Origin: a virus
Virus record (IMG/VR): IMGVR_UViG_3300013947_000009
Location: 1-44,729 of that record
DNA length: 44,729 bases
Direction: 5' to 3' (one strand)
Shown here piece by piece: positions 7,267 through 44,729 of the stretch. The translations under genes and the position numbers were made by a program. The notes under the pieces were generated by a model, which saw only the letters and a program-made list of their open reading frames with translations, was not told where the DNA came from and did no database searches. Position 1 is the stretch's first letter; each line of letters starts with the position of its first letter.

Positions 7267-8031
7267 ATGGTACCAAGAATGCCGGAAGAATACAAAGGTC
7301 AAACAAATAAAAATGGTGGGTATACTACGAGCTCGCCGAGAGTGTGGACCAAACATGAATTAGAATGGGTTCAAAAACTTATTGCTGAAGGCTACTCAGT
7401 TAAAGAGATTGCGGAAAGTACCGATCGCACTGTCACTTCTGTTTCCATAAAAATCAAACGTCTTGGAAAAAAAGATGGGGGTTATAACGCGGACCATGTA
7501 GAAGAAAAGTATGAAATAAACGATGCATTTCTGAATGATATTAAGCCAGAATTTGTTCTTGATTGCTATTGCGGTAAACAAAATTTTTATAAAGATAAAG
7601 TTGCAGTAGTGACTAATGACATTGATGAAACTATTCCCGCAGATTATCACATGGATGCCTTAAAACTTCTTTGTGCACAATATCAGCGTGGTATGTCATT
7701 CGACTTAATTGATTTGGACCCATTCGGTAGTGCTTATGACTGTTTTGATTTAGCGATTAAAATGGCTCGGAAAGGCATAGTCATTACTTTTGGTGAGATG
7801 GGGCATAAACGTTGGAAACGCTTAGATTTTGTATCACGTTATTATGGTATCAATTCTCTTGATGATTTTCGCTTGGAGAAGATGATTCAGCACGTTCAGA
7901 TGATTGGACGAAGAAACAAGAAGAATCTCATCGTTTGCTATCAACGCGAATGGCGCAATATTGCAAGGGTTTGGTTTAAGATTGAACCTCTCAAAATCAC
8001 TGAGCAATGGGAGGGAAAATTAAATTGCTGA
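7267..8031 (+). CDS. HTH (Myb/sigma-r4-like) fused to a TRM1-like SAM methyltransferase fold
   Basis: VLDCYCG (motif I-like) and DLDPFGSAYDCFDLA (TRM1-type DPFGS motif). Confidence 0.55.
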   Translation: MVPRMPEEYKGQTNKNGGYTTSSPRVWTKHELEWVQKLIAEGYSVKEIAESTDRTVTSVSIKIKRLGKKDGGYNADHVEEKYEINDAFLNDIKPEFVLDCYCGKQNFYKDKVAVVTNDIDETIPADYHMDALKLLCAQYQRGMSFDLIDLDPFGSAYDCFDLAIKMARKGIVITFGEMGHKRWKRLDFVSRYYGINSLDDFRLEKMIQHVQMIGRRNKKNLIVCYQREWRNIARVWFKIEPLKITEQWEGKLNC

Positions 8032-9719
8032 ATTTTTACGATTTTGAGGTGTTTAAGGAAAATTGGCTGGTTGTCATAATCAATCCGGCTGAACGGTCAG
8101 AAACAATAATTGTCGATGATTCTGAAAAGCTGAAAGCCTATTATGAATCTCACAAAAATGAAATTTGGATCGGGTACAATAATCGTCGTTATGACCAGTA
8201 CATTATGAAAGCTATTCTTTGCGGATTTGATCCCAAGAAAGTCTCCGACTATTTAATTGTTGAAAATAAGGGAGGTTGGCAATATAGCAGTATGATGAAT
8301 AAGATTCCGATGATTAACTTTGACGTTATGCTTAAAAACGACGGAGGTCTTAAATCTCTTGAGGGATTCATGGGGAATGATATTCGAGAGACGAGCGTTC
8401 CATTTGATATTGACAGGAAGTTAACGGCCGAAGAAATTGCTGAAACTATCAAATATTGTAAGCACGACGTTGAGCAGACTATCGAAGTGTTTCTCAACCG
8501 AAAAGCAGAGTTTGACGCTGCCCTGGGATTGGTTAAGATTTTTAATCTTCCCATGAAGTTTATGGGAAAAACCGGCGCTCAAAGAGTTGCTCATATTTTG
8601 GGCGGAAAAGGTATTCATTATCACGATGAATTCGATTTTGAAATCGTTCCGACTCTGAAATTGAGTAAATATAAGTATATAGCTGATTGGTACCGAAACC
8701 CAGCTAATCGTGATTATAATAAAAAGCAAAAAGTCACGGTTGCAGGCGTCGAACACATTTTCGCTTGGGGAGGAATCCATGGGGCTATTCCAAAGTATTG
8801 TGATGAGGGAATTTTCTTGATGGCGGACGTTACAGCGTATTATCCCAGCTTACAGCTTCGATATAAATTCGGTTATCGCAATATGGTAAATCCCGAAAAT
8901 TTCGAGAAGATTCACGGCGAAAATTTAAGGCTTAAGAAAATTGATAAAAAAGCCAGACTTCCGTATAAAATTGCCGATAACGCAATTTCGGGCCAGCTCA
9001 AAGATAAGTATTCTCCGTTGTATGATCCGCGAGACAACAACGCAATCACTGTTAACGGACAGCTTTTGCTGCTTGATTTAATTGAAAAACTTGAGTCTCA
9101 CATTGAAAGACTGGTTCAATCTAATACCGATGGTATTCTCATCAAACTACGGTCAATTGATGACTATGAAAAAATTGACGATATCGTATGGGAATGGGAA
9201 CAACGAACGGGCATGCGAATGGGCTTTGACCTTTACACAAAAGTTTTTCAAAAGGACGTTAACAATTATTTAATTGTTGCTGAAGACGGAAGCACAAAAA
9301 CCAAGGGTGCCTATACTAAATCTTTGGGACCGCTCGATTTTGATTTGCCAATCATTAATAAAGCTATGGTTGAGTACATGAAAAATGGTACTCCTATAGA
9401 AAGAACGATTTTGGAATGTAATGAGCTTAAAATGTTCCAGAAAATCATAAAGTTGAGCGGTAAATATAAGTGCGTTTGGCACAACGGAAAATCATACACC
9501 GAAAAATGCTTCAGAGTCTTCGCAAGCCGATCTTCTTCAGATTCTTATATTGGCAAGCAAAAAAGCAACGGCGCAACGATTGAAAAGTTTGCAAACACCC
9601 CTGAACATTGTTTTGTTGATAATTCTGACATTAACGGAAAAAGTGTTCCCGATGAATTAGACAAACGATGGTATATCAATTTAACAAAAGAACGACTTGA
9701 ACAATATGGAGTGATTTAG
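8007..9719 (+). CDS. Family-B-like DNA polymerase with 3'-5' exonuclease domain; alternative TTG start at 8025
   Basis: Exo motifs FYDFEVF, GYNNRRYD, YCKHDV; pol motifs DVTAYYPSL, KIADNAISGQ, NTDGILI. Confidence 0.7.
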   Translation: MGGKIKLLNFYDFEVFKENWLVVIINPAERSETIIVDDSEKLKAYYESHKNEIWIGYNNRRYDQYIMKAILCGFDPKKVSDYLIVENKGGWQYSSMMNKIPMINFDVMLKNDGGLKSLEGFMGNDIRETSVPFDIDRKLTAEEIAETIKYCKHDVEQTIEVFLNRKAEFDAALGLVKIFNLPMKFMGKTGAQRVAHILGGKGIHYHDEFDFEIVPTLKLSKYKYIADWYRNPANRDYNKKQKVTVAGVEHIFAWGGIHGAIPKYCDEGIFLMADVTAYYPSLQLRYKFGYRNMVNPENFEKIHGENLRLKKIDKKARLPYKIADNAISGQLKDKYSPLYDPRDNNAITVNGQLLLLDLIEKLESHIERLVQSNTDGILIKLRSIDDYEKIDDIVWEWEQRTGMRMGFDLYTKVFQKDVNNYLIVAEDGSTKTKGAYTKSLGPLDFDLPIINKAMVEYMKNGTPIERTILECNELKMFQKIIKLSGKYKCVWHNGKSYTEKCFRVFASRSSSDSYIGKQKSNGATIEKFANTPEHCFVDNSDINGKSVPDELDKRWYINLTKERLEQYGVI

Positions 9720-9720
9720 A

Positions 9721-9927
9721 ATGACACATATGATTTACGAAACTCCGGGTACAAGGTACGGCCATTGGGAAGTATTGAGCTTCCACGAGGTAGATTCTCA
9801 CGGCGATGCTCGTTGGTGGTGTCGATGCTCAATATGCGGCGGAATTTATTCTGTAGCAGGATTCCGATTGCGTAACGGTAAATCAACGAAATGCTGGCCT
9901 TGCCATTTGCGGGAACCGAAGAGGTGA
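9721..9927 (+). CDS. Small zinc-ribbon protein, 68 aa
   Basis: CRCSICG...CWPC cysteine pairs. Confidence 0.6.
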   Translation: MTHMIYETPGTRYGHWEVLSFHEVDSHGDARWWCRCSICGGIYSVAGFRLRNGKSTKCWPCHLREPKR

Positions 9928-9932
9928 CGTGA

Positions 9933-11810
9933 TTGGAATTATTTCGCGGATACGTACCAACCAAGGATAAAAAATGCTTGATGAAATTCAAGAATTCGTC
10001 AGATTTGAAAAGTTATCGAGAAGTTAAAAATTTGCCTGAGTTTGCTGGAATACTCGCAGCCGACACGATTTTGATTGATGTTGATGATTTTCATCAATCA
10101 GAAATAATGATGGATATAGTTGAGGAGCTTCAACTGAGATGCCGAGTATATGCAACATCTCGAGGAAAGCATTTTCTTTTCAAAAATGACGGAGTAGAGA
10201 CAAACAAAATTCGCACGAAATTAGCTTGCGGATTGGAAGCTGATATTAAACTCGGAACTCGAAATAGTTACAGCGTGCTGAAATACGCCGGGAAAGAAAG
10301 AGAAATCATTTACGACATTTTCGAAGATGAAGATTATGAGCCTGTCCCTAAGTTTTTCACGCCTATTCAAACAAACATTGATTTTTTGAACATGGAGCAG
10401 GGAGATGGAAGAAATCAGTCATTATTCAATTATATCTTGACTCTTCAAAGCAATGACTTTTCAGTTGATGAGGCAAGACAGACGTTAAAGATCATCAATG
10501 ACCATGTGCTACCTGACCCGTTATCGGAGGAAGAATTGAGCACTCTATCACGCGATGACGCATTCAAAAAGCCGGTTTTCTTCAATAAAGGAAAGTTTCT
10601 TTTTGACAAGTTTGCAATCTTCCTCAAAAACAATAACCATATTGTCAGAATTAACGGGCAGCTACATATATATCGCGATGGTATTTACGTTGAGGGTCAA
10701 CCAGAAATTGAAGCAGCGATGATTGAGCATATTCCGAACCTAAACCGCTCGAAGCGAACAGAGATAACGAGTTATTTGGACATTCTCATTCGAAAGAATA
10801 TAAAAACCGATAATGCGAATCTCATAGCTTTCAGGAACGGCGTCTATGACCTTGAAACCGGTGAGCTGAGAGAATTCAGTCCGGATATTATAATTACGAA
10901 CAAAATCGATCATGATTATAACCCCGAGGCTTATAGCGAATTGGCCGACAAGACGCTTGATAAACTCGCTTGCGGAGACGCAGACGTCAGAGCCTTGTTG
11001 GAAGAAGCAATCGGTTATTGTTTCTATCGAAGAAATGAGTTAAGAAAATCTTTCATACTCACCGGCGATAAGAAAAACGGTAAATCGACATATCTGGCTG
11101 TTTTGAAAGAGCTGCTTGGAGACGTTAACACTGCGTCACTTGATTTGAATGAGTTGGGCGACAGGTTTTCGAGTGCCTCACTGTTCGGAAAGCTCGCAAA
11201 TATCGGCGACGATATTGCAGATGACTTTATTTCCAACCCGGCAATATTCAAAAAGATTGTTTCCGGCGATTGGATAAAAGGTGAGAACAAAGGTCAGAAA
11301 GAGTTTTTCTTCAAGCCTTATTGTAAGCTACTTTTCTCAGCCAACAATATTCCGAGAATTAAGGACAAATCGGGAGCAGTTCTTGACCGTTTGGTTATCG
11401 TTCCTTTTGACGCTCAATTCTCGAAAGATGACCCTGATTTTGATCCCTATATCAAGTATAAATTAATTCAGGAAGATTCATTGCAATACTTGATTTTGTT
11501 GGGAATTAAAGGGTTGAAGCGGGTACTCGATAACCGAGAATTTACTCAATCGGCCAAAGTACAAAGGTCCATTGATGAATACAAGGAAACGAACAATCCG
11601 ATTCTATTATTCTTCAAAGAAGACGTGCAAATTATCAACGAGCCAACGAATGAGGTATATCGCAAATATACGGAATTTTGTTTGGCAAACAGCTTCACGC
11701 CAATGAGCAACATCGAGTTTTCTAAACAAATCAAAAAGCACTATGGCGTTGAAATCAAAAGTAAAAGTATCAACGGTAAAAAATACCGCATATTTGTTGA
11801 AAGGAGTTAG
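9933..11810 (+). CDS. Bifunctional prim-pol / D5_N / P4-family primase-helicase
   Basis: ILIDVDD and SRGKH prim-pol motifs; Walker A GDKKNGKST; Walker B NIGDD; TTG start (ATG alternative at 9981). Confidence 0.85.
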   Translation: MELFRGYVPTKDKKCLMKFKNSSDLKSYREVKNLPEFAGILAADTILIDVDDFHQSEIMMDIVEELQLRCRVYATSRGKHFLFKNDGVETNKIRTKLACGLEADIKLGTRNSYSVLKYAGKEREIIYDIFEDEDYEPVPKFFTPIQTNIDFLNMEQGDGRNQSLFNYILTLQSNDFSVDEARQTLKIINDHVLPDPLSEEELSTLSRDDAFKKPVFFNKGKFLFDKFAIFLKNNNHIVRINGQLHIYRDGIYVEGQPEIEAAMIEHIPNLNRSKRTEITSYLDILIRKNIKTDNANLIAFRNGVYDLETGELREFSPDIIITNKIDHDYNPEAYSELADKTLDKLACGDADVRALLEEAIGYCFYRRNELRKSFILTGDKKNGKSTYLAVLKELLGDVNTASLDLNELGDRFSSASLFGKLANIGDDIADDFISNPAIFKKIVSGDWIKGENKGQKEFFFKPYCKLLFSANNIPRIKDKSGAVLDRLVIVPFDAQFSKDDPDFDPYIKYKLIQEDSLQYLILLGIKGLKRVLDNREFTQSAKVQRSIDEYKETNNPILLFFKEDVQIINEPTNEVYRKYTEFCLANSFTPMSNIEFSKQIKKHYGVEIKSKSINGKKYRIFVERS

Positions 11811-11812
11811 TT

Positions 11813-12139
11813 ATGACAAGTGAACGATTTAACGAGATTGTGAGAGAGCAGGTTGACACGTGCATGAGCTTGCTCGGAGTTAAAGGCGATGAATACGACA
11901 CAAATTCAAATGACCGTCTTCATGCTTTTAAAGCGGCAGCAGAAATTCAGTACGTCACACCTAAACAAGCTCTCGCGGGCATGATGGCCAAGCATACCAT
12001 ATCTATTTATGACATGCTTGCGAATGCCGATGAAAAACCTCCCGTTGAGAAATGGGTCGAAAAAATTTCAGACAGCATTAACTACTTGCTGTTACTGAGA
12101 GCAATTATTCAAGAGGAGATTGACAATAATGAAGCGTGA
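11813..12139 (+). CDS. DUF1599/MazG-like all-alpha protein (nucleotide-metabolism associated)
   Basis: GVKGDEYD...RLHAFKAAAEI...KH pattern; family call tentative. Confidence 0.45.
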   Translation: MTSERFNEIVREQVDTCMSLLGVKGDEYDTNSNDRLHAFKAAAEIQYVTPKQALAGMMAKHTISIYDMLANADEKPPVEKWVEKISDSINYLLLLRAIIQEEIDNNEA

Positions 12140-12266
12140 AGTAGTTACAGTTGTTAAGTATACCGAAGATTATATTCTTCTGAGTGACGGCAAAGAAATC
12201 CGCCCTCCTCATGGGCAAAAGTTTGATTTGGACGTCATTAAAAAAATATGGGAGGTGACGGATTGA
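12129..12266 (+). CDS. Small hypothetical protein, 45 aa
   Basis: Hand translation MKREVVTVVKYTEDYILLSDGKEIRPPHGQKFDLDVIKKIWEVTD; stop abuts the next ATG. Confidence 0.45.
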   Translation: MKREVVTVVKYTEDYILLSDGKEIRPPHGQKFDLDVIKKIWEVTD

Positions 12267-13058
12267 ATGCAATATAACAACATGGATGATATTTATCGTA
12301 TTATTTGTCGGCAGTTGCTTTACGCCCCGAAAGTTGGCGAAACTCGTGAAATAAACGGCTATTCATTTACCCTCACGAATTTGGACAACAACGTCGTTAA
12401 TATTCGCAATATTTCCAAATCGTATATTTGTGGAGAATTGCTTTGGTATGTGTTGGGCCGAAATGACGTGGGATTCATCAGCAAGTTTGCTAAACTCTGG
12501 GAAAGAATCAGCGACGATGGAAAAACATCGAACTCAGCTTATGGAGATATTATCCTCAAGCGCCACGGTTTTAACCAAGTTGATACCATTATTAGGCTTT
12601 TGAAGAAAGACCCGTTGAGTCGTCGAGCGGTAATCAATTTCAATGTGCCGAATCCAAACGTGATTAATACAAAAGATGAGATTTGTACCGTTGCTTTGCA
12701 ATTCCTCATTCGAAATGGAAAACTCAATGCGTATGGCTTGATGCGCAGCAACGATGTTTGGTTTGGTCTTCCGTATGATGTGATATTTTTCACAGAGTTG
12801 CAAAAGTACATCGCTCGCAAATTGGGAGTAGATTGTGGAACATATACACATACAGCAAATAGCTTGCATGTATATGAGCGGAATCTCCCTGATTTGGAAA
12901 AGGTTATATTTGCGAAGTCTGAGACTAAAATCTCCGTGGATTTTCAAAAATTCTGGATGTGCCGATATGGACTTGAAAGCGTCGTTGAAACATCGGATGA
13001 TCCGAGAAAGGAGCTTGTCGAAACGTGCGAACGCTTGAATATATTGAAAACGATTTGA
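12267..13058 (+). CDS. Thymidylate-synthase-family enzyme; predicted pyrimidine C5 hydroxymethylase/methylase acting on dCMP
   Basis: ThyA motifs ELLWY, DPLSRR, catalytic C140 (DEICT), RSND, GLPYD (Asp171 where TS has Asn), HVYE. Confidence 0.8.
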   Translation: MQYNNMDDIYRIICRQLLYAPKVGETREINGYSFTLTNLDNNVVNIRNISKSYICGELLWYVLGRNDVGFISKFAKLWERISDDGKTSNSAYGDIILKRHGFNQVDTIIRLLKKDPLSRRAVINFNVPNPNVINTKDEICTVALQFLIRNGKLNAYGLMRSNDVWFGLPYDVIFFTELQKYIARKLGVDCGTYTHTANSLHVYERNLPDLEKVIFAKSETKISVDFQKFWMCRYGLESVVETSDDPRKELVETCERLNILKTI

Positions 13059-13261
13059 CCTCGTGCATTTTCTCGTCTATAAATCAACGATGCGCTATTT
13101 TGACAGCGACTAAATGCCCTAAAAATTGCGCTTTTAAGAAGTCATTGACTGAATATCTTGACGGAATGCTCCATGCCGAAGAGATTCTTCGAGAAAAAGG
13201 ATTGAAGCGCGTAATGGCGTCTATAGACAACAACGAAATTGTAACTACTAAAAAGGAGTAA
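13025..13261 (+). CDS. Cys-rich small hypothetical protein, 78 aa, GTG start
   Basis: ORF fills the gap between the ThyA-like gene and the methyltransferase; start uncertain. Confidence 0.45.
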   Translation: MRTLEYIENDLTSCIFSSINQRCAILTATKCPKNCAFKKSLTEYLDGMLHAEEILREKGLKRVMASIDNNEIVTTKKE

Positions 13262-13266
13262 TTATT

Positions 13267-14019
13267 ATGGCAAAAGAAATTTACAACAAAACCCAACTCA
13301 CACCGCAGCAAGAATTTGAAAGACACATTTACCACCGCGATCAGTTTGCGCACTATCTGAGATGGTCGCATGTTCTGAAAGTCGCAAAAATCGGTCAAAA
13401 GATTCTTGACTTCGGTTGCGGATCAGGCGAAATGCTTGAGCTATTCTACCGCAATAAATTCAGACCTAAGAGATATTTGGGCCTGGACATTCGCCAGCAA
13501 ACAATCAAAGAAAACCAGGAGAAATTCGCAAAGCTCGATTTTGCTGAATTCAGACAGGCAGACCTCTGTCAGAGTGAGCTTGACCTTGGAGAAGACTTTG
13601 ACATTATTACTTGTTTTGAAGTGATGGAGCATATCGGCCATGCCAATGCAGACAAATTCCTTGAAAATATCTGGTATCACTGCGGCAAAGATACAAGGGT
13701 ATATCTGAGCACGCCGAACTATGATCCAAAAGTAGGAGCAGCAAAAAATCACCTTCTGGGGCCTGATAAAGAAATCGGCGAATGGGATCATTTCGAGCTT
13801 CAGGAAAAATTGAGCGAATATTTCGACATTGAGGCGAAATACGGCACGTTTGCAAGCATGAAAGACTACAAGGAAGAAATCGTCGGAGATTGGAGACAGC
13901 AGATGTTCGATGCTCTGAAAGAATATTATGACACGAACCTCATCTCGGTAATTATGGCGCCTCTCATTAAACCAGAACATGCTCGCAACTGCTTGTGGGT
14001 ACTGCGCGCAAAGGAGTGA
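13267..14019 (+). CDS. Class I SAM-dependent methyltransferase
   Basis: ILDFGCGSGEM motif I, DIITCFEVMEHI. Confidence 0.8.
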   Translation: MAKEIYNKTQLTPQQEFERHIYHRDQFAHYLRWSHVLKVAKIGQKILDFGCGSGEMLELFYRNKFRPKRYLGLDIRQQTIKENQEKFAKLDFAEFRQADLCQSELDLGEDFDIITCFEVMEHIGHANADKFLENIWYHCGKDTRVYLSTPNYDPKVGAAKNHLLGPDKEIGEWDHFELQEKLSEYFDIEAKYGTFASMKDYKEEIVGDWRQQMFDALKEYYDTNLISVIMAPLIKPEHARNCLWVLRAKE

Positions 14020-14024
14020 GTTTT

Positions 14025-14354
14025 ATGCACATAAAAATGCACAATGGCAAGGCTTATGGCGTGCAATTCACAGCAAGAGAGCGCGAAGCAATGCATAAGG
14101 AAGTCAACAGGCAGCTCGTTGAACAAATGCGCGAGCTCGGAACTGACGTTGATGCCCTGATTCTGTGGGTGCTACACGTTGAGTTTGGATTCGGCAAACA
14201 GAGGTTGAAAAGATTTTTTGACGTGTTCACAAAAGAATATGAATACATGGGCGAATATTACGACATGCCCAAGGATGTTCCTTGGATTTGCCGTACAAAG
14301 CTGAAAGAAATCGGCGTTGACATTGAACAATGGAATAAGGAGGCAAAACAATGA
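14025..14354 (+). CDS. Hypothetical protein, 109 aa
   Basis: ATG 14025 preceded by AAGGAG; track start 13995 overlaps the previous gene. Confidence 0.6.
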   Translation: MHIKMHNGKAYGVQFTAREREAMHKEVNRQLVEQMRELGTDVDALILWVLHVEFGFGKQRLKRFFDVFTKEYEYMGEYYDMPKDVPWICRTKLKEIGVDIEQWNKEAKQ

Positions 14355-14596
14355 TTTGCATGAAGAAAAAAATTAAGGTTGAGGACATTATTATTCCCGG
14401 CATTTTTGCCGGGAGCACCCCTAAACCTACGAAGCTGATCGAAAAGACAGCCGAGTATTTGGAATCAGGCAAAATCGCGTCGGTGTATGTTGACCGAAAT
14501 AAAGTGCTGGTTGACGGCTATTGCAGCTATTTGATTCTGAAAACGCTCGGCGTAAAGAAAATTAAATGTGTACAGATAAAGGAGAAAGATAGATGA
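14351..14596 (+). CDS. Small degenerate ParB/Srx-like N-terminal domain protein
   Basis: VLVDGYCSYLILKTLGVKKI resembles the ParB DGHHR region but lacks those residues. Confidence 0.4.
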   Translation: MICMKKKIKVEDIIIPGIFAGSTPKPTKLIEKTAEYLESGKIASVYVDRNKVLVDGYCSYLILKTLGVKKIKCVQIKEKDR

Positions 14597-14889
14597 TTCT
14601 TACATTATGCGGAAGTACGAAATTTAAGGATGATTTTATACGAGTGAATAAAGAGCTCACACTTGCTGGAAATGTCGTCCTCTCGGTCGGATGTTTTGGT
14701 CATAGTGGTGATTTTATCACCGACGAACAGAAGCTCATGCTCGATGCAATTCATAAGCGAAAAATTGACTTGTCAGAAGGCATATATGTCATCAACAAGG
14801 GCGGTTATATTGGTTCTTCGACGCGCGAGGAAATCAAATACGCAAGGAGCCATGGAAAATCAATCTTTTATATGGAGGAGCAAAAATGA
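14593..14889 (+). CDS. Nucleoside 2-deoxyribosyltransferase-superfamily-like small protein
   Basis: MILTLCGS..., HKRKIDLSEGIYVIN..GYIGSSTREEIKYA pattern. Confidence 0.45.
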   Translation: MILTLCGSTKFKDDFIRVNKELTLAGNVVLSVGCFGHSGDFITDEQKLMLDAIHKRKIDLSEGIYVINKGGYIGSSTREEIKYARSHGKSIFYMEEQK

Positions 14890-15305
14890 AGGTAAAAGTC
14901 ATCGATTTTGGTTATGAAAAGCTGCCGTTCAGAGCACATGAAAACGATGCCGGAGCAGATGTCTACGCGCACTTGCCCAACAGACGAGTCGGTGTTTGGC
15001 CTCATGAAACTGTGAAAATTCCGCTCGGTTTGGGCCTCTGTTTGCCTGATGGATATATGGCTTGCGTATTCCCCAGGAGCGGTTTGGCGAGCAAGGGACT
15101 TGTCTGTGAGCTTCCCCCTATCGATTCGGGTTACCGCGGAGAGATTCACGCGATTGTTACGAATTGCAGTAATGTCAAGCAATTTGTCAATGATGGAGAC
15201 AGAATTGGGCAACTGGTAATCACTCCGGTAGTAGTTGCTGACTTCATCACGGAAGACATTAAGGTGAGAGGCAACAGTGGTTTTGGCTCAACTGGGCTAA
15301 AATGA
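14886..15305 (+). CDS. dut: Trimeric dUTPase
   Basis: All five motifs: AGADVYA, PRSGLA, IDSGYRGEI, GDRIGQLV, RGNSGFGSTG. Confidence 0.92.
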   Translation: MKVKVIDFGYEKLPFRAHENDAGADVYAHLPNRRVGVWPHETVKIPLGLGLCLPDGYMACVFPRSGLASKGLVCELPPIDSGYRGEIHAIVTNCSNVKQFVNDGDRIGQLVITPVVVADFITEDIKVRGNSGFGSTGLK

Positions 15306-15332
15306 TTCTATATGTGAAGAATGGTATAAGAT
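15301..15332. repeat. Inner inverted repeat, partner of 163-194
   Basis: Exact reverse complement; overlaps the dUTPase stop codon. Confidence 0.9.
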
Positions 15333-15369
15333 CGGTATAAGATCGGTATAAGATGAATTCATTCATCTT
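15323..15369. promoter_or_regulatory. Candidate recombinase-binding array: three tandem 11-bp units ggtataagat(c/g) (15323-15355) overlapping dyad aagatga-attcat-tcatctt (15350-15369)
   Basis: Exact tandem repeats with 11-bp phasing; ggtataag/cttatacc also recurs at 15464-15471, 15568-15575 and in IR copy A. Confidence 0.5.
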
Positions 15370-15394
15370 CAACTCCTGTTTCGATAAGAATAGT

Positions 15395-15460
15395 TAGCGT
15401 GATGATTAAATAATGATTGCTGACGATATTATTTTTAATCGTCACGCTACTTTTCAATTT
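15395..15460 (+). terminator. Long hairpin (16-bp stem, one G-U pair, 23-nt loop) followed by a T-rich tract; putative early-operon terminator
   Basis: tagcgtgatgattaaa ... tttaatcgtcacgcta then cttttcaatttt. Confidence 0.5.
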
Positions 15461-15461
15461 T

Positions 15462-15590
15462 GCGGTATAAGATGGACAAGATACTTTTTAGTCTTAGATA
15501 ATATAGCACTTTAACTTTTAGCTAAGCTCTATTATATATAAGTAAAATAGTTAAGTTATACTATACTCTTATACCATTCTTCTGAAAGAG
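15462..15590. repeat. IR copy B (129 bp), exact reverse complement of copy A; ends 8 nt before the integrase ATG
   Basis: Block-by-block comparison, 0 mismatches. Confidence 0.95.
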
Positions 15591-15598
15591 GAGATTAT

Positions 15599-16603
15599 AT
15601 GAGAAGAGCAAATGGAGAAGGTTCGATTTTTAAATTAGGCGGAAAACGGCGAAAACCATGGGCCGTTAGAATCACAACCGGATATGAAGATGACGGTAAA
15701 CAGATTTATAAATATGTTGGATATTACCCAACCAAGACAGAAGCTAAAGAAGCAATGAGGGAATACTTAGTCAATCCATTCAATTTGGATCATAAGAGCA
15801 CAAAGCTCAAGGACGTTTATGATAGATGGTTAGACCAAGCTGATCTTGCTCAAACGACATTGCAAAGTTATACGTCCGCCTTTAATCAGGCGAAGCAATT
15901 ACATAACATGAACATGAGAGATATTAAGGCCGTACATCTGGAAGCAGCCATGGACCAGATGAAACCGCACATGCGCAGCGTATTTAAAAATGCAATGGGA
16001 AAAGTATACATATATGCTATCAAGCACGAAATTGTTGATAAGGACATCGTGAGTCTAATTTCAATTAAAACTATGGTTGAAACAAGAGAGAAAACTCCAT
16101 TCACTTTGGCTGAGATTAACAAGTTAAAATCTTTCAAGCATCCATTAAATGATACCGTTTTCATTTTGCTTTATACCGGAATGCGGATCAATGAATTGCT
16201 TGAGATTAAATGTGAAAATGTTTACTTAGATAAAAGGTATATGATTGGGGGTAAAAAGACGAAAGCCGGACAAAATCGAGTTATCCCAATTCACAATGCG
16301 ATTTATCCTTTGATTAAAGCGAGATATGAACAGGGGAATAAATACCTGATAACAAAGGATAATAAGAAAATCAGTTACGCTACATATCGGATCAGTTATT
16401 GGAACAAGATGACCTCAGCTCTGAAATTCAAACATACTCCCCATGATACTCGACACACGTTTACCACATTTGCAGATAGATATGAGGTTAATAAGGTTGC
16501 ACTGAAAAGAATTCTCGGGCACACATTAAACGACACGACTGATCACTATACGCATAAGGACCTCAGCGAATTATTGACTGAGATCAACAAAATTGAATAT
16601 TAA
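15599..16603 (+). CDS. int: Tyrosine recombinase / phage integrase with AP2-like N-terminal arm-binding domain
   Basis: N-terminal GSIFK...KPWAVRIT; catalytic-domain R...HDTRHTF...LGH...HYTH. Confidence 0.92.
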   Translation: MRRANGEGSIFKLGGKRRKPWAVRITTGYEDDGKQIYKYVGYYPTKTEAKEAMREYLVNPFNLDHKSTKLKDVYDRWLDQADLAQTTLQSYTSAFNQAKQLHNMNMRDIKAVHLEAAMDQMKPHMRSVFKNAMGKVYIYAIKHEIVDKDIVSLISIKTMVETREKTPFTLAEINKLKSFKHPLNDTVFILLYTGMRINELLEIKCENVYLDKRYMIGGKKTKAGQNRVIPIHNAIYPLIKARYEQGNKYLITKDNKKISYATYRISYWNKMTSALKFKHTPHDTRHTFTTFADRYEVNKVALKRILGHTLNDTTDHYTHKDLSELLTEINKIEY

Positions 16604-16629
16604 AAAAGAGCCTCGCGGCTCTTTTTTTG
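16602..16629. terminator. Bidirectional rho-independent terminator
   Basis: aaaaaagagcc-tcgc-ggctcttttttt between convergent genes. Confidence 0.85.
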
Positions 16630-16881
16630 TTATCTACACCAATCTTTATTTATCATTTCTTCATCTGCAATTCTTTTAATAGACGGACATTCATTACTCT
16701 TCAAATTTGCCCATACTTGGTATGGGTTTTCTGCCTGCCATACTACTTTTCCATCGTACATGCTGCACATTCTAATAAGAATACCATGTTGCTCTAAAAA
16801 TGTTTTCAAGATGAAGAACTCTTCACTACTTGATTTTATTAGATTTGTTTTCTGTCCGTATTCTTCTGTTATATGTTCCAT
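16630..16881 (-). CDS. Hypothetical protein, 83 aa
   Basis: ORF ending at the bidirectional terminator. Confidence 0.55.
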   Translation of the reverse strand: MEHITEEYGQKTNLIKSSSEEFFILKTFLEQHGILIRMCSMYDGKVVWQAENPYQVWANLKSNECPSIKRIADEEMINKDWCR

Positions 16882-41279: not shown

Positions 41280-41963
41280 TCAGCAAGACCTGGGGGGACC
41301 CCCGAATTTCTCCCACCAATCAGAAATATATTTTTCCCATTCAACTAAATCACGATCTGAACAATCTTTTAGTCGCTGCAAACAAGTTTCTTTGTCTGTA
41401 TCAATAAATATTTCTCTTGCTCCAAGCGATTTAATTAACCGTTCGCGCTCGCTAATTAAAGGATATCCGCCTATAACATAAGCATTGAGCCACTTGCCAC
41501 GACGAACACGAACCATATCAATTAAAGAATCTCTTACAGCAAATACATTCTGTCTGAGCCTGTTAGGTTTAATGTATCTGTCGCACCCCGAAATACATTG
41601 CCATATGTTATCCATATCGACAATAAGATCGCCCTCTGACATATTATCTTTAACCCAAGTAGACTTGCCGCTTAACGGCGAGCCATACACCAAGAACACT
41701 TGTCTCTGAGCATAGCCCAACTTGTTGTGTATAATGTTATGACAACGATGATGAACCAACTGAATCAAATCAGGATTGAGAGATATGGAAGCATCCATAT
41801 AGTTAAACTCATCGAGTACTACCGAATGATGTCCAATACAATCGTATGCTTTAACTATCGGTCTACCGCAATGCTCGCATATGATTTGACCTTCATCATT
41901 TGCACGTTGTAGCTTAATGAGAGTTAATAAGTCTCGCCATTCATTCGACGTATAATCAAACAC
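41280..41963 (-). CDS. HNH endonuclease fused to a P-loop kinase-like (AAA_33/zeta-like) domain
   Basis: CEHCG...HH......N...LVHHRCHNIIH; then VYGSPLSGKST Walker A. Confidence 0.75.
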   Translation of the reverse strand: MFDYTSNEWRDLLTLIKLQRANDEGQIICEHCGRPIVKAYDCIGHHSVVLDEFNYMDASISLNPDLIQLVHHRCHNIIHNKLGYAQRQVFLVYGSPLSGKSTWVKDNMSEGDLIVDMDNIWQCISGCDRYIKPNRLRQNVFAVRDSLIDMVRVRRGKWLNAYVIGGYPLISERERLIKSLGAREIFIDTDKETCLQRLKDCSDRDLVEWEKYISDWWEKFGGPPRSC

Positions 41964-44650: not shown

Positions 44651-44729
44651 CTCTTTCAGAAGAATGGTATAAGAGTATAGTATAACTTAACTATTTTACT
44701 TATATATAATAGAGCTTAGCTAAAAGTTA
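44651..44729. repeat. IR copy A, left part (continues into 36-85 after the circular overlap); starts 15 nt upstream of the ArpU-like ATG on the - strand
   Basis: Exact reverse complement of 15512-15590. Confidence 0.95.

Follow-up and report, generated by a model that had tools for sequence, protein, structure and literature searches.

A ThyA-family protein of a temperate-type siphophage is a predicted dCMP hydroxymethylase linked to a candidate tailoring methyltransferase

We studied the open reading frame (ORF) at 12267-13058 on the plus strand of IMG/VR virus record IMGVR_UViG_3300013947_000009, a 44,729-nucleotide stretch of phage DNA that is referred to in full as the window. Its 263-amino-acid product belongs to the ThyA family, and the ORF, its PF00303 match and its active-site signature together predict a deoxycytidine monophosphate (dCMP) hydroxymethylase, or 5-hydroxymethyl-dCMP synthase. 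With a probability that we put at roughly 0.72, the protein is a dCMP hydroxymethylase that depends on folate and functionally resembles T4 gp42, and it would supply 5-hydroxymethylcytosine (5hmC) for phage DNA. The Asn-to-Asp reading of ThyA is an established flag for cytosine-modified phages, and ORF 12267-13058 is a clear positive. The kind of enzyme is well known, the Asp rule has previously been applied to metagenomic phages, and the overall strategy is likewise known. What is distinctive here is that the usual kinase is missing and that a methyltransferase replaces the usual sugar- or carbamoyl-adding enzyme.

The active site carries a hydroxymethylase signature

We used MAFFT to align the protein under study (hereafter the query) with E. 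coli ThyA, T4 gp42, a MilA fragment, SPO1 gp29, the ThyA proteins of phages VPE25 and ATCCB, and 268 database homologues (275 sequences), which comprised 119 close homologues and 149 representatives clustered at 50% identity. The E. coli ThyA and T4 gp42 references were verified as 100% matches to PDB entries. An earlier note on this DNA, made by eye from the sequence, had recognised the motifs ELLWY, DPLSRR, DEICT with the catalytic Cys140, RSND, GLPYD and HVYE, and we found them at residues 57-61, 115-120, 137-141, 160-163, 167-171 and 201-204, as it had described. It had also proposed that Asp171 occupies the position at which thymidylate synthase uses an Asn to discriminate between pyrimidines. 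The alignment, run across thymidylate synthase, T4 gp42 and SPO1 gp29, bore this out: the query has Asp, not Asn, in the column that holds E. coli Asn177, T4 Asp179, an Asp in MilA and an Asn in SPO1. The register was the same in independent pairwise alignments made with HMMER between the query and PDB thymidylate synthases or MilA.

Asp171 is encoded by the GAT codon at 12777-12779 (plus strand) and aligns as the cytosine-versus-uracil determinant. The same residue was found in 266 of the 268 homologues (119/119 close homologues and 147/149 clustered representatives), and an identical ThyA protein was assembled on 12 contigs from several samples, indicating that Asp171 is real and under selection rather than a sequencing error. 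Replacement of Asn177 by Asp gives dCMP specificity, which is the literature rule for phage ThyA homologues (PMC13326640; PMC8670742; PMC5175136). In the MetaGPA metagenomic selection, positions 177 and 147 separated cytosine-modified from unmodified contigs better than any others (PMC8670742).

Databases and phage records label the ThyA(Asp) family "thymidylate synthase", and this name favours an ordinary enzyme that makes deoxythymidine monophosphate (dTMP) for phage replication. We regard that function as extremely improbable for the query, in which three canonical thymidylate synthase residues are replaced: Asn177 by Asp171, Leu143 by Asp137 and His147 by Thr141, the last corresponding to T4 Thr149. 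An Asp at position 177 strongly disfavours deoxyuridine monophosphate (dUMP) as the substrate (PMC13326640; PMC8670742). Moreover, all eight NCBIfam equivalog models for thymidylate synthase scored far below their cutoffs, the best reaching 78.9 bits against 174.55. The general PF00303 (thymidylate synthase) profile did match the query (E=2.7e-25, 89.5 bits against a cutoff of 24.3), and this alignment stops at profile position 226 of 266, so that the thymidylate synthase C-terminal segment is unmatched.

The product-specifying residues of T4 gp42 are also present in the query. Asp137-Glu-Ile-Cys140 (12675-12686, plus strand) aligns with E. coli Leu143/Cys146 and T4 Asp145/Cys148 as the Asp-x-x-Cys hydroxymethylase signature, and Ser90-Ala91-Tyr92 (12534-12542, plus strand) aligns with Ser94-x-Tyr96, the water-positioning pair of T4. 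In the T4 enzyme, Asp145, three residues before the catalytic Cys, is essential and activates the water that attacks the exocyclic methylene; the D145N, S94N and Y96F mutations each abolish formation of 5-hydroxymethyl-dCMP, and Asp-x-x-Cys together with Ser-x-Tyr was proposed as a hydroxymethylase signature, thymidylate synthase having Leu143 in place of the Asp (PMC6400193). Among the 268 homologues of the query, the Asp137 and Cys140 columns are invariant, and the two motifs as a whole are invariant or nearly so.

The earlier note had predicted 5-hydroxymethyl- or 5-methyl-dCMP, not dTMP, as the product. The sequence favours the hydroxymethyl half of that prediction over the methyl half, since Asp137-x-x-Cys140 and Ser90-x-Tyr92 point toward a hydroxymethyl product. 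A dCMP C5-methyltransferase making 5-methyl-dCMP, like the N229D/N177D thymidylate synthase mutants or an XP12-type activity, draws its appeal from reports that thymidylate synthase becomes a dCMP methylase through the Asn-to-Asp change alone (Liu and Santi 1992; Hardy and Nalivaika 1992, as cited in PMC8670742). We think this activity quite improbable for the query, in which Asp137 at the Leu143 position and Ser90-x-Tyr92 form the hydroxymethylase signature and the PF00303 match ends before the C-terminal segment. Two related phages, L034 and L038, do carry a ThyA that pairs Leu at 143 with Asp at 177, as predicted for a dCMP methylase, and are clearly distinct from the query. Both signatures can thus be told apart in this phage group, and the query carries the hydroxymethylase one.

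Substitution of Leu143 by Asp or Glu accompanies a hydroxymethyl product, and D169N marks the flavin-dependent 5-hydroxy-dCMP synthases (PMC13326640). The latter include RB69 gp48 and DLP3 gp80, which were long annotated as hydroxymethylases and also carry N177D and L143E/D (PMC13326640), so these two substitutions are compatible with such a synthase here as well. Every tested 5-hydroxy-dCMP synthase, however, has Asn at the E. coli Asp169 position (PMC13326640). In the query, the equivalent residue lies in Ser161-Asn162-Asp163 (12747-12755, plus strand; alignment, PMC5175136, PMC13326640) and is Asp163, and Asp is kept in 268/268 homologues. The retained Asp163 argues that the query is not a 5-hydroxy-dCMP synthase, and Pfam and PHROG scans found no arabinosyl- or glycosyltransferase in the window; we judge this reading very improbable.

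The sugar specificity can be read in the same way. MilA and BcmA, the hydroxymethylases of mildiomycin and bacimethrin biosynthesis (PDB 5B6D), share with the query the Asp at the base-discriminating position and the Asp-x-x-Cys motif. They favour cytidine monophosphate (CMP) through Lys133 and Ala176, which replace the Arg and Ser of enzymes acting on deoxynucleoside monophosphates (dNMPs), and the MilA A176S/K133R double mutant switches to dCMP (PMC5175136). The query has Arg119 (12621-12623, plus strand), equivalent to thymidylate synthase Arg126', T4 Arg123' and MilA Lys133 (alignment, PMC5175136), and Ser161, equivalent to thymidylate synthase Ser167 and MilA Ala176. It is therefore of the deoxyribose type, as in dCMP and dUMP enzymes and unlike MilA, which favours ribose. 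Like the product-specifying motifs, Arg119, Ser161 and Thr141 show little or no variation among the 268 homologues. MilA and BcmA sit in antibiotic gene clusters, whereas the query gene lies in a phage replication module.

Residues general to the thymidylate synthase / pyrimidine hydroxymethylase superfamily were also aligned: the nucleophile Cys140 and the general-base residues Glu57 and Tyr92 with E. coli Cys146, Glu58 and Tyr94; the phosphate-binding Arg119, Arg120 and Arg160 with Arg126, Arg127 and Arg166; and the sugar-binding His201 and Tyr203 with His207 and Tyr209. The query and T4 gp42 have the same residue at 17 of 19 E. coli positions that were compared; the other two are Arg21, where there is a gap, and Glu82, where Arg stands against Gln. 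T4 gp42 (PDB 1B5E, 6A9A) matches the query at every base-, sugar- and product-specificity position checked, with Glu, Ser-x-Tyr, Arg-Arg, Asp-x-x-Cys-Thr, Met-Arg-Ser-Asn-Asp, Asp (T4 179), His and Tyr in common. The predicted chemistry and its purpose, 5hmC for phage DNA, would also be the same.

On this basis, the reaction would begin with attack of Cys140 on C6 of dCMP. Asp171 would protonate and read N3/N4 of the cytosine, thereby excluding dUMP, and the methylene of 5,10-methylene-tetrahydrofolate would move to C5. Asp137, with Ser90 and Tyr92, would then activate a water that attacks the exocyclic methylene, giving 5-hydroxymethyl-dCMP without hydride transfer. Most likely, in our view, the enzyme serves to provide 5hmC with which the phage protects its own DNA from restriction.

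Homologues of the query occur in phages with modified cytosine

The query gene is preceded by a GGAGG Shine-Dalgarno sequence at 12251-12255, and its ATG abuts the stop codon of a small ORF upstream. The family is large, with 10,359 representatives at E<1e-3 in a library clustered at 50% identity. When positions 9900-16700 were compared by megablast with 50,697 phage records, there were no matches, indicating that no annotated close relative exists. A single-protein scan of genome contigs with the query found nothing, and a profile scan of these contigs found only metagenome-assembled genomes at up to 54% identity (rumen, Collinsella, Erysipelotrichaceae and horse faeces), together with actinomycete MilA-like genes. 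ThyA(Asp) homologues with 33-36% identity to the query were observed on Micromonospora, Actinoplanes and Virgisporangium chromosomes (L051-L057). The two of these that were aligned, L051 and L052, have the Asp-x-x-Cys motif and a Ser at the MilA Ala176 position, and the actinomycete genes may belong to uncharacterised nucleoside antibiotic clusters with a deoxy substrate.

Among sequenced phages, the closest homologues come from Enterococcus phages VPE25, VFW, 9183 and Planchet and Lactobacillus phage ATCCB, with 42-49% identity across 84-99% of the protein. They share with the query phage the active-site signature and the pairing of ThyA with a dUTPase. The DNA of VPE25 and VFW, whose ThyA proteins are about 42-45% identical to the query, is refractory to bisulfite conversion and to digestion by EcoRI and MspI, is cleaved by PvuRts1I, and has been read as containing glucosylated 5hmC (PMC4999554). 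The cytosine-modified DNA of these two phages supports the claim that the DNA of the phage studied here may contain modified cytosine. VPE25 and ATCCB share the arrangement kinase, ThyA(Asp), an optional dUTPase and beta-glucosyltransferase. The query phage lacks both the kinase directly upstream and the downstream beta-glucosyltransferase, and has an S-adenosylmethionine (SAM)-dependent methyltransferase instead.

The nearest ThyA homologues overall, at 67-71% identity, are from metagenomic relatives with the order primase, dNMP kinase, ThyA(Asp), dUTPase, a protein of about 220 amino acids, O-carbamoyltransferase and dCMP deaminase. This arrangement is the source of the characterised 5hmC carbamoyltransferase and of 5-carbamoyloxymethylcytosine (MetaGPA, eLife 2021; PMC8670742). 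The query phage is syntenic with the MetaGPA-type carbamoyltransferase phages across the polymerase, primase, ThyA and dUTPase, but it lacks their kinase, O-carbamoyltransferase and dCMP deaminase. The conserved protein of about 220 amino acids was observed just upstream of the 5hmC carbamoyltransferase gene in three loci (L001:11215-11868, L002:11822-12487 and L003:12059-12733); it has no Pfam match, resembles a degenerate ThyX by eye and is absent from the window.

We screened 80 IMG/VR viral loci with purpose-built hidden Markov models (HMMs) for neighbours of ThyA(Asp). In almost every one of the roughly 65 closest loci, a kinase gene adjoins ThyA(Asp), and in three loci (L108, L126 and L128) the two lie in one reading frame and are apparently fused. 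Such fusions are strong evidence that the two activities are coupled, and together with the adjacency they indicate that the product of the ThyA(Asp) family normally proceeds to the triphosphate. Protein P0121, of 440 amino acids with a ThyA match at residues 166-387, likewise suggests a kinase-ThyA(Asp) fusion. Most of the 80 loci also have a dUTPase gene close to ThyA(Asp). The accessory genes fall into classes: methyltransferase in 13 loci, beta-glucosyltransferase in 10, carbamoyltransferase in 5, or a deaminase only.

If the DNA of this phage family is modified as predicted, it may withstand many restriction enzymes and act abnormally in bisulfite or enzymatic methylation assays, and its nanopore signals may shift.

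The genome lacks several partners of known hydroxymethylases

The window is a complete circular genome, as indicated by the 35-nt direct repeat at its termini and by a second, independently made assembly, 44,716 nt long, that is 100% identical. The phage, known from gut or rumen metagenomes, is a siphophage of temperate type with a genome of about 44.7 kb. Its genome encodes a polymerase, a primase/helicase, an SNF2 helicase, an exonuclease/Sak4 fusion, SSB, a dUTPase, an integrase, a cI-like repressor, and structural and lysis genes.

Several findings weigh against the prediction that the query supplies 5hmC for phage DNA, and the first group concerns missing genes. No homologue of the dNMP kinase was found in the complete genome by tblastn with the kinases of five relatives, and an HMM built from 15 kinase sequences gave no match with E<0.5 in the genome when run with filters off (--max). 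No glycosyltransferase, carbamoyltransferase or dCMP deaminase was found in the genome by Pfam and PHROG scans and tblastn. There is no recognised dCTPase in the genome either, and the base specificity of the linked trimeric dUTPase is not readable from sequence. In the absence of the kinase and the dCTPase, efficient conversion of 5-hydroxymethyl-dCMP to the triphosphate (hm-dCTP) and exclusion of dCTP are unexplained, and the missing kinase makes the amount of modified base that reaches DNA uncertain. In T4, gp1 provides a dNMP kinase and gp56 a dCTPase, and glucosyltransferases are present as well; the trimeric dUTPase is the only recognisable counterpart here. T4 is also a T-even myovirus, and the query phage a small temperate-type siphophage.

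Other points on the same side concern the biology of the phage and the reach of the comparisons. The integrase and the cI-like repressor imply a prophage stage that is replicated with ordinary cytosine. The experimental data reach only homologues at most 45% identical to the query. In addition, the top PDB sequence match is MilA, a CMP hydroxymethylase of a small-molecule pathway, and not T4 gp42: the E-values were 4e-30 for MilA, about 1e-15 for thymidylate synthases and 8.6e-14 for the T4 dCMP hydroxymethylase, whose alignment spans only residues 48-191 of the query with distant overall similarity. We infer both the activity of the query protein and the entry of its product into DNA without a phage kinase. 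The lack of the near-universal kinase also makes this phage a natural test of whether host kinases, probably those of a Gram-positive gut host, process 5-hydroxymethyl-dCMP.

A scan for Walker-A motifs showed that the other P-loop proteins of the genome are the Sak4-like exonuclease fusion, the primase/helicase and an HNH-AAA_33 protein beside the terminase. The last of these (41280-41963, minus strand) joins an HNH-like N-terminus to the P-loop GSPLSGKS and matches AAA_33 weakly. It is encoded within the packaging region, ahead of the terminase genes, is conserved in L003 and carries the PHROG label small terminase subunit. Of the three it is the one that could conceivably serve as a kinase, but as a possible substitute it is unsupported, since L003 has both this protein and a dedicated kinase.

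The position upstream of ThyA where relatives carry the dNMP kinase is filled by a 48-amino-acid ORF and by p108 (11813-12139, plus strand), which PHROG assigns to phrog_6802, of unknown function. The p108 protein had no match in PDB, in Pfam (even at E<10) or in NCBIfam. It also lies upstream of ThyA in L034 (6001-6318) and L038 (1844-2110), the two phages with the Leu143 and Asp177 combination, and other p108 homologues have no ThyA nearby.

A linked methyltransferase occupies the tailoring position

Downstream of the query gene, a class I SAM-dependent methyltransferase of 250 amino acids (13267-14019, plus strand; Pfam Methyltransf_23/12/25/11) is a candidate tailoring enzyme. It occupies the genomic position at which relatives have a 5hmC glucosyltransferase or a 5hmC carbamoyltransferase. 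All 15 IMG/VR contigs with homologues of it (71-84% identity) place them no more than about 1.5 kb from ThyA(Asp), in the order primase, kinase, methyltransferase, an optional small gene termed p98, ThyA(Asp) and dUTPase. The enzyme probably modifies the hydroxymethylated base or nucleotide further.

The methyltransferase of the window is 84% identical to this methyltransferase lineage, while its ThyA is about 70% identical to the carbamoyltransferase lineage and only 49-58% identical to the methyltransferase lineage. These differing affinities indicate that the window is a mosaic, which fits interchangeable tailoring cassettes at the tailoring position. The window appears to have acquired a methyltransferase cassette in place of the carbamoyltransferase cassette of its nearest ThyA relatives.

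In a PDB profile search, the top five matches to the methyltransferase were all bacterial and plant enzymes of the Hen1 family (E=6e-8 to 5e-6). It shares motif I, EVxEH and TPN with the Hen1 RNA 3'-terminal 2'-O-methyltransferases (PDB 3JWG, 3JWH, 3HTX), a weak similarity at E of about 1e-7, and the register of a downstream DHxFEW-like motif is ambiguous. EVxEH is the metal-binding motif in Hen1. NCBIfam matches to UbiG and Hen1 were weak and far below cutoff (Hen1, 36.6 bits against 340). The window has no Pnkp or RNA ligase partner, and the methyltransferase gene is always linked to ThyA(Asp). An AlphaFold model of the protein had a predicted local distance difference test (pLDDT) score of 69, and Foldseek matched it to generic class I methyltransferases (cap guanine-N7 methyltransferases, N-methyltransferases and cyclopropane fatty acid synthase), so that the acceptor atom cannot be deduced from the fold.

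The Hen1-like matches make O-methylation of a nucleic-acid or nucleotide hydroxyl a reasonable guess. As a tentative and rather doubtful extension, the enzyme might O-methylate the hydroxymethyl group of 5hmC, in the nucleotide or in DNA, to give 5-methoxymethylcytosine; this would be a third kind of tailoring beside the glucosyl- and carbamoyltransferases. A literature search found no report of a methoxymethyl base or of 5hmC methylation in phage DNA, and there was no mention of a 5hmC methyltransferase in the MetaGPA follow-up papers. If the methyltransferase does act on 5hmC, it would represent a new hypermodified phage base and a new enzyme for 5hmC-directed biotechnology.

The p98 protein and a possible small-molecule pathway

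The p98 gene (14593-14889, plus strand) encodes a protein with a predicted nucleoside 2-deoxyribosyltransferase or nucleotide N-glycosidase fold (AlphaFold2 model, pLDDT 88.5). Neither a single-sequence nor a profile search found a PDB match for it, and it had no match in Pfam, PHROG or NCBIfam. With the model, Foldseek matched BcmB (4jen, E=8e-4), deoxyribosyltransferases (TMq 0.72-0.76), MilB and DNPH1, at marginal E-values that lie between 8e-4 and 5e-3 for BcmB, the deoxyribosyltransferases and MilB. Phe11-Lys12 and Glu80 are invariant in the p98 family, which has more than 3,200 members, often in large phages, and also occurs without ThyA or the methyltransferase. Among the 15 methyltransferase loci, p98 lies between the methyltransferase and ThyA in nine and is missing from six.

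The presence of this fold beside a MilA-like sequence raises a different purpose for the query, namely a MilA/BcmA-like small-molecule pathway. The ThyA(Asp) enzyme would hydroxymethylate a cytidine nucleotide, p98 would free 5-hydroxymethylcytosine and the methyltransferase would methylate it, giving a bacimethrin-like antimetabolite. The bacimethrin cluster bcmABCD comprises the hydroxymethylase, N-glycosidase, methyltransferase and kinase classes, and the same classes are found here, the kinase in relatives of the phage. MilA is the best PDB sequence match to the query (4e-30, against 8.6e-14 for the T4 enzyme), and the p98 model best matches the CMP N-glycosidase BcmB, with MilB also among the matches. 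By eye, Phe11-Lys12 of p98 recalls MilB Phe22-Arg23 and BcmB Lys12, and its Ser/Thr...Glu80 recalls the phosphate-binding and catalytic residues of MilB. The absence of a dNMP kinase from the window fits such a pathway as well.

We nevertheless consider a small-molecule pathway unlikely. Arg119 and Ser161 of the query are of the deoxyribose type, whereas MilA and BcmA have Lys and Ala; the ThyA gene lies inside a DNA replication module; and the P-loop dNMP-type kinase of the relatives also occurs in phages for which experiments have demonstrated DNA modification. The p98 family, for its part, is widespread without ThyA or the methyltransferase and is absent from 6 of the 15 methyltransferase loci, and its Foldseek E-values are marginal (8e-4 and weaker). 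For p98 itself, a possible role is to sanitise nucleotides as an N-glycosidase, with 5-hydroxymethyl-dUMP as an example of a substrate.

Other features of the genome

The query gene belongs to a replication and nucleotide module, which also includes a DNA polymerase, a primase and a dUTPase. The DNA polymerase (8007-9719, plus strand; phrog_1252 at 6e-155) and the D5-like primase/helicase (9933-11810, plus strand; D5_N, DUF5906) form the replication machinery (8007-11810) that would use a modified deoxynucleoside triphosphate. Downstream of p98, a trimeric dUTPase-family enzyme (14886-15305, plus strand; PF00692 at 2.3e-20) is the conserved partner of ThyA(Asp), and its NCBIfam dut scores of 98.6-99.5 bits fall just under the cutoffs of 102.55 and 103.

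A second methyltransferase-like protein (7267-8031, plus strand) is encoded between SSB and the DNA polymerase. An N-terminal helix-turn-helix precedes a TRM1-like core that contains the motif LIDLDPFGS, and the PHROG matched by this protein carries the annotation DNA methyltransferase. The protein may be the source of a further DNA modification.

When the contig is circularised through its 35-nt terminal repeat, a perfect 129-nt inverted repeat is observed between 15462-15590 and 44651-44729 plus 36-85. A second pair of arms, of 58 nt with 90% identity, lies at 138-195 and 15300-15357. The repeat and the pair of arms bracket a 29-kb arc that holds the integrase and all structural genes, and a tyrosine recombinase gene (15599-16603) sits just inside the 129-nt repeat. 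In L004, an independent, 100% identical assembly, the arc has the opposite orientation, in which all genes are co-directional and the integrase lies beside the cI-like repressor. Either the assembler chose between ambiguous orientations, or the tyrosine recombinase catalyses a genuine inversion.

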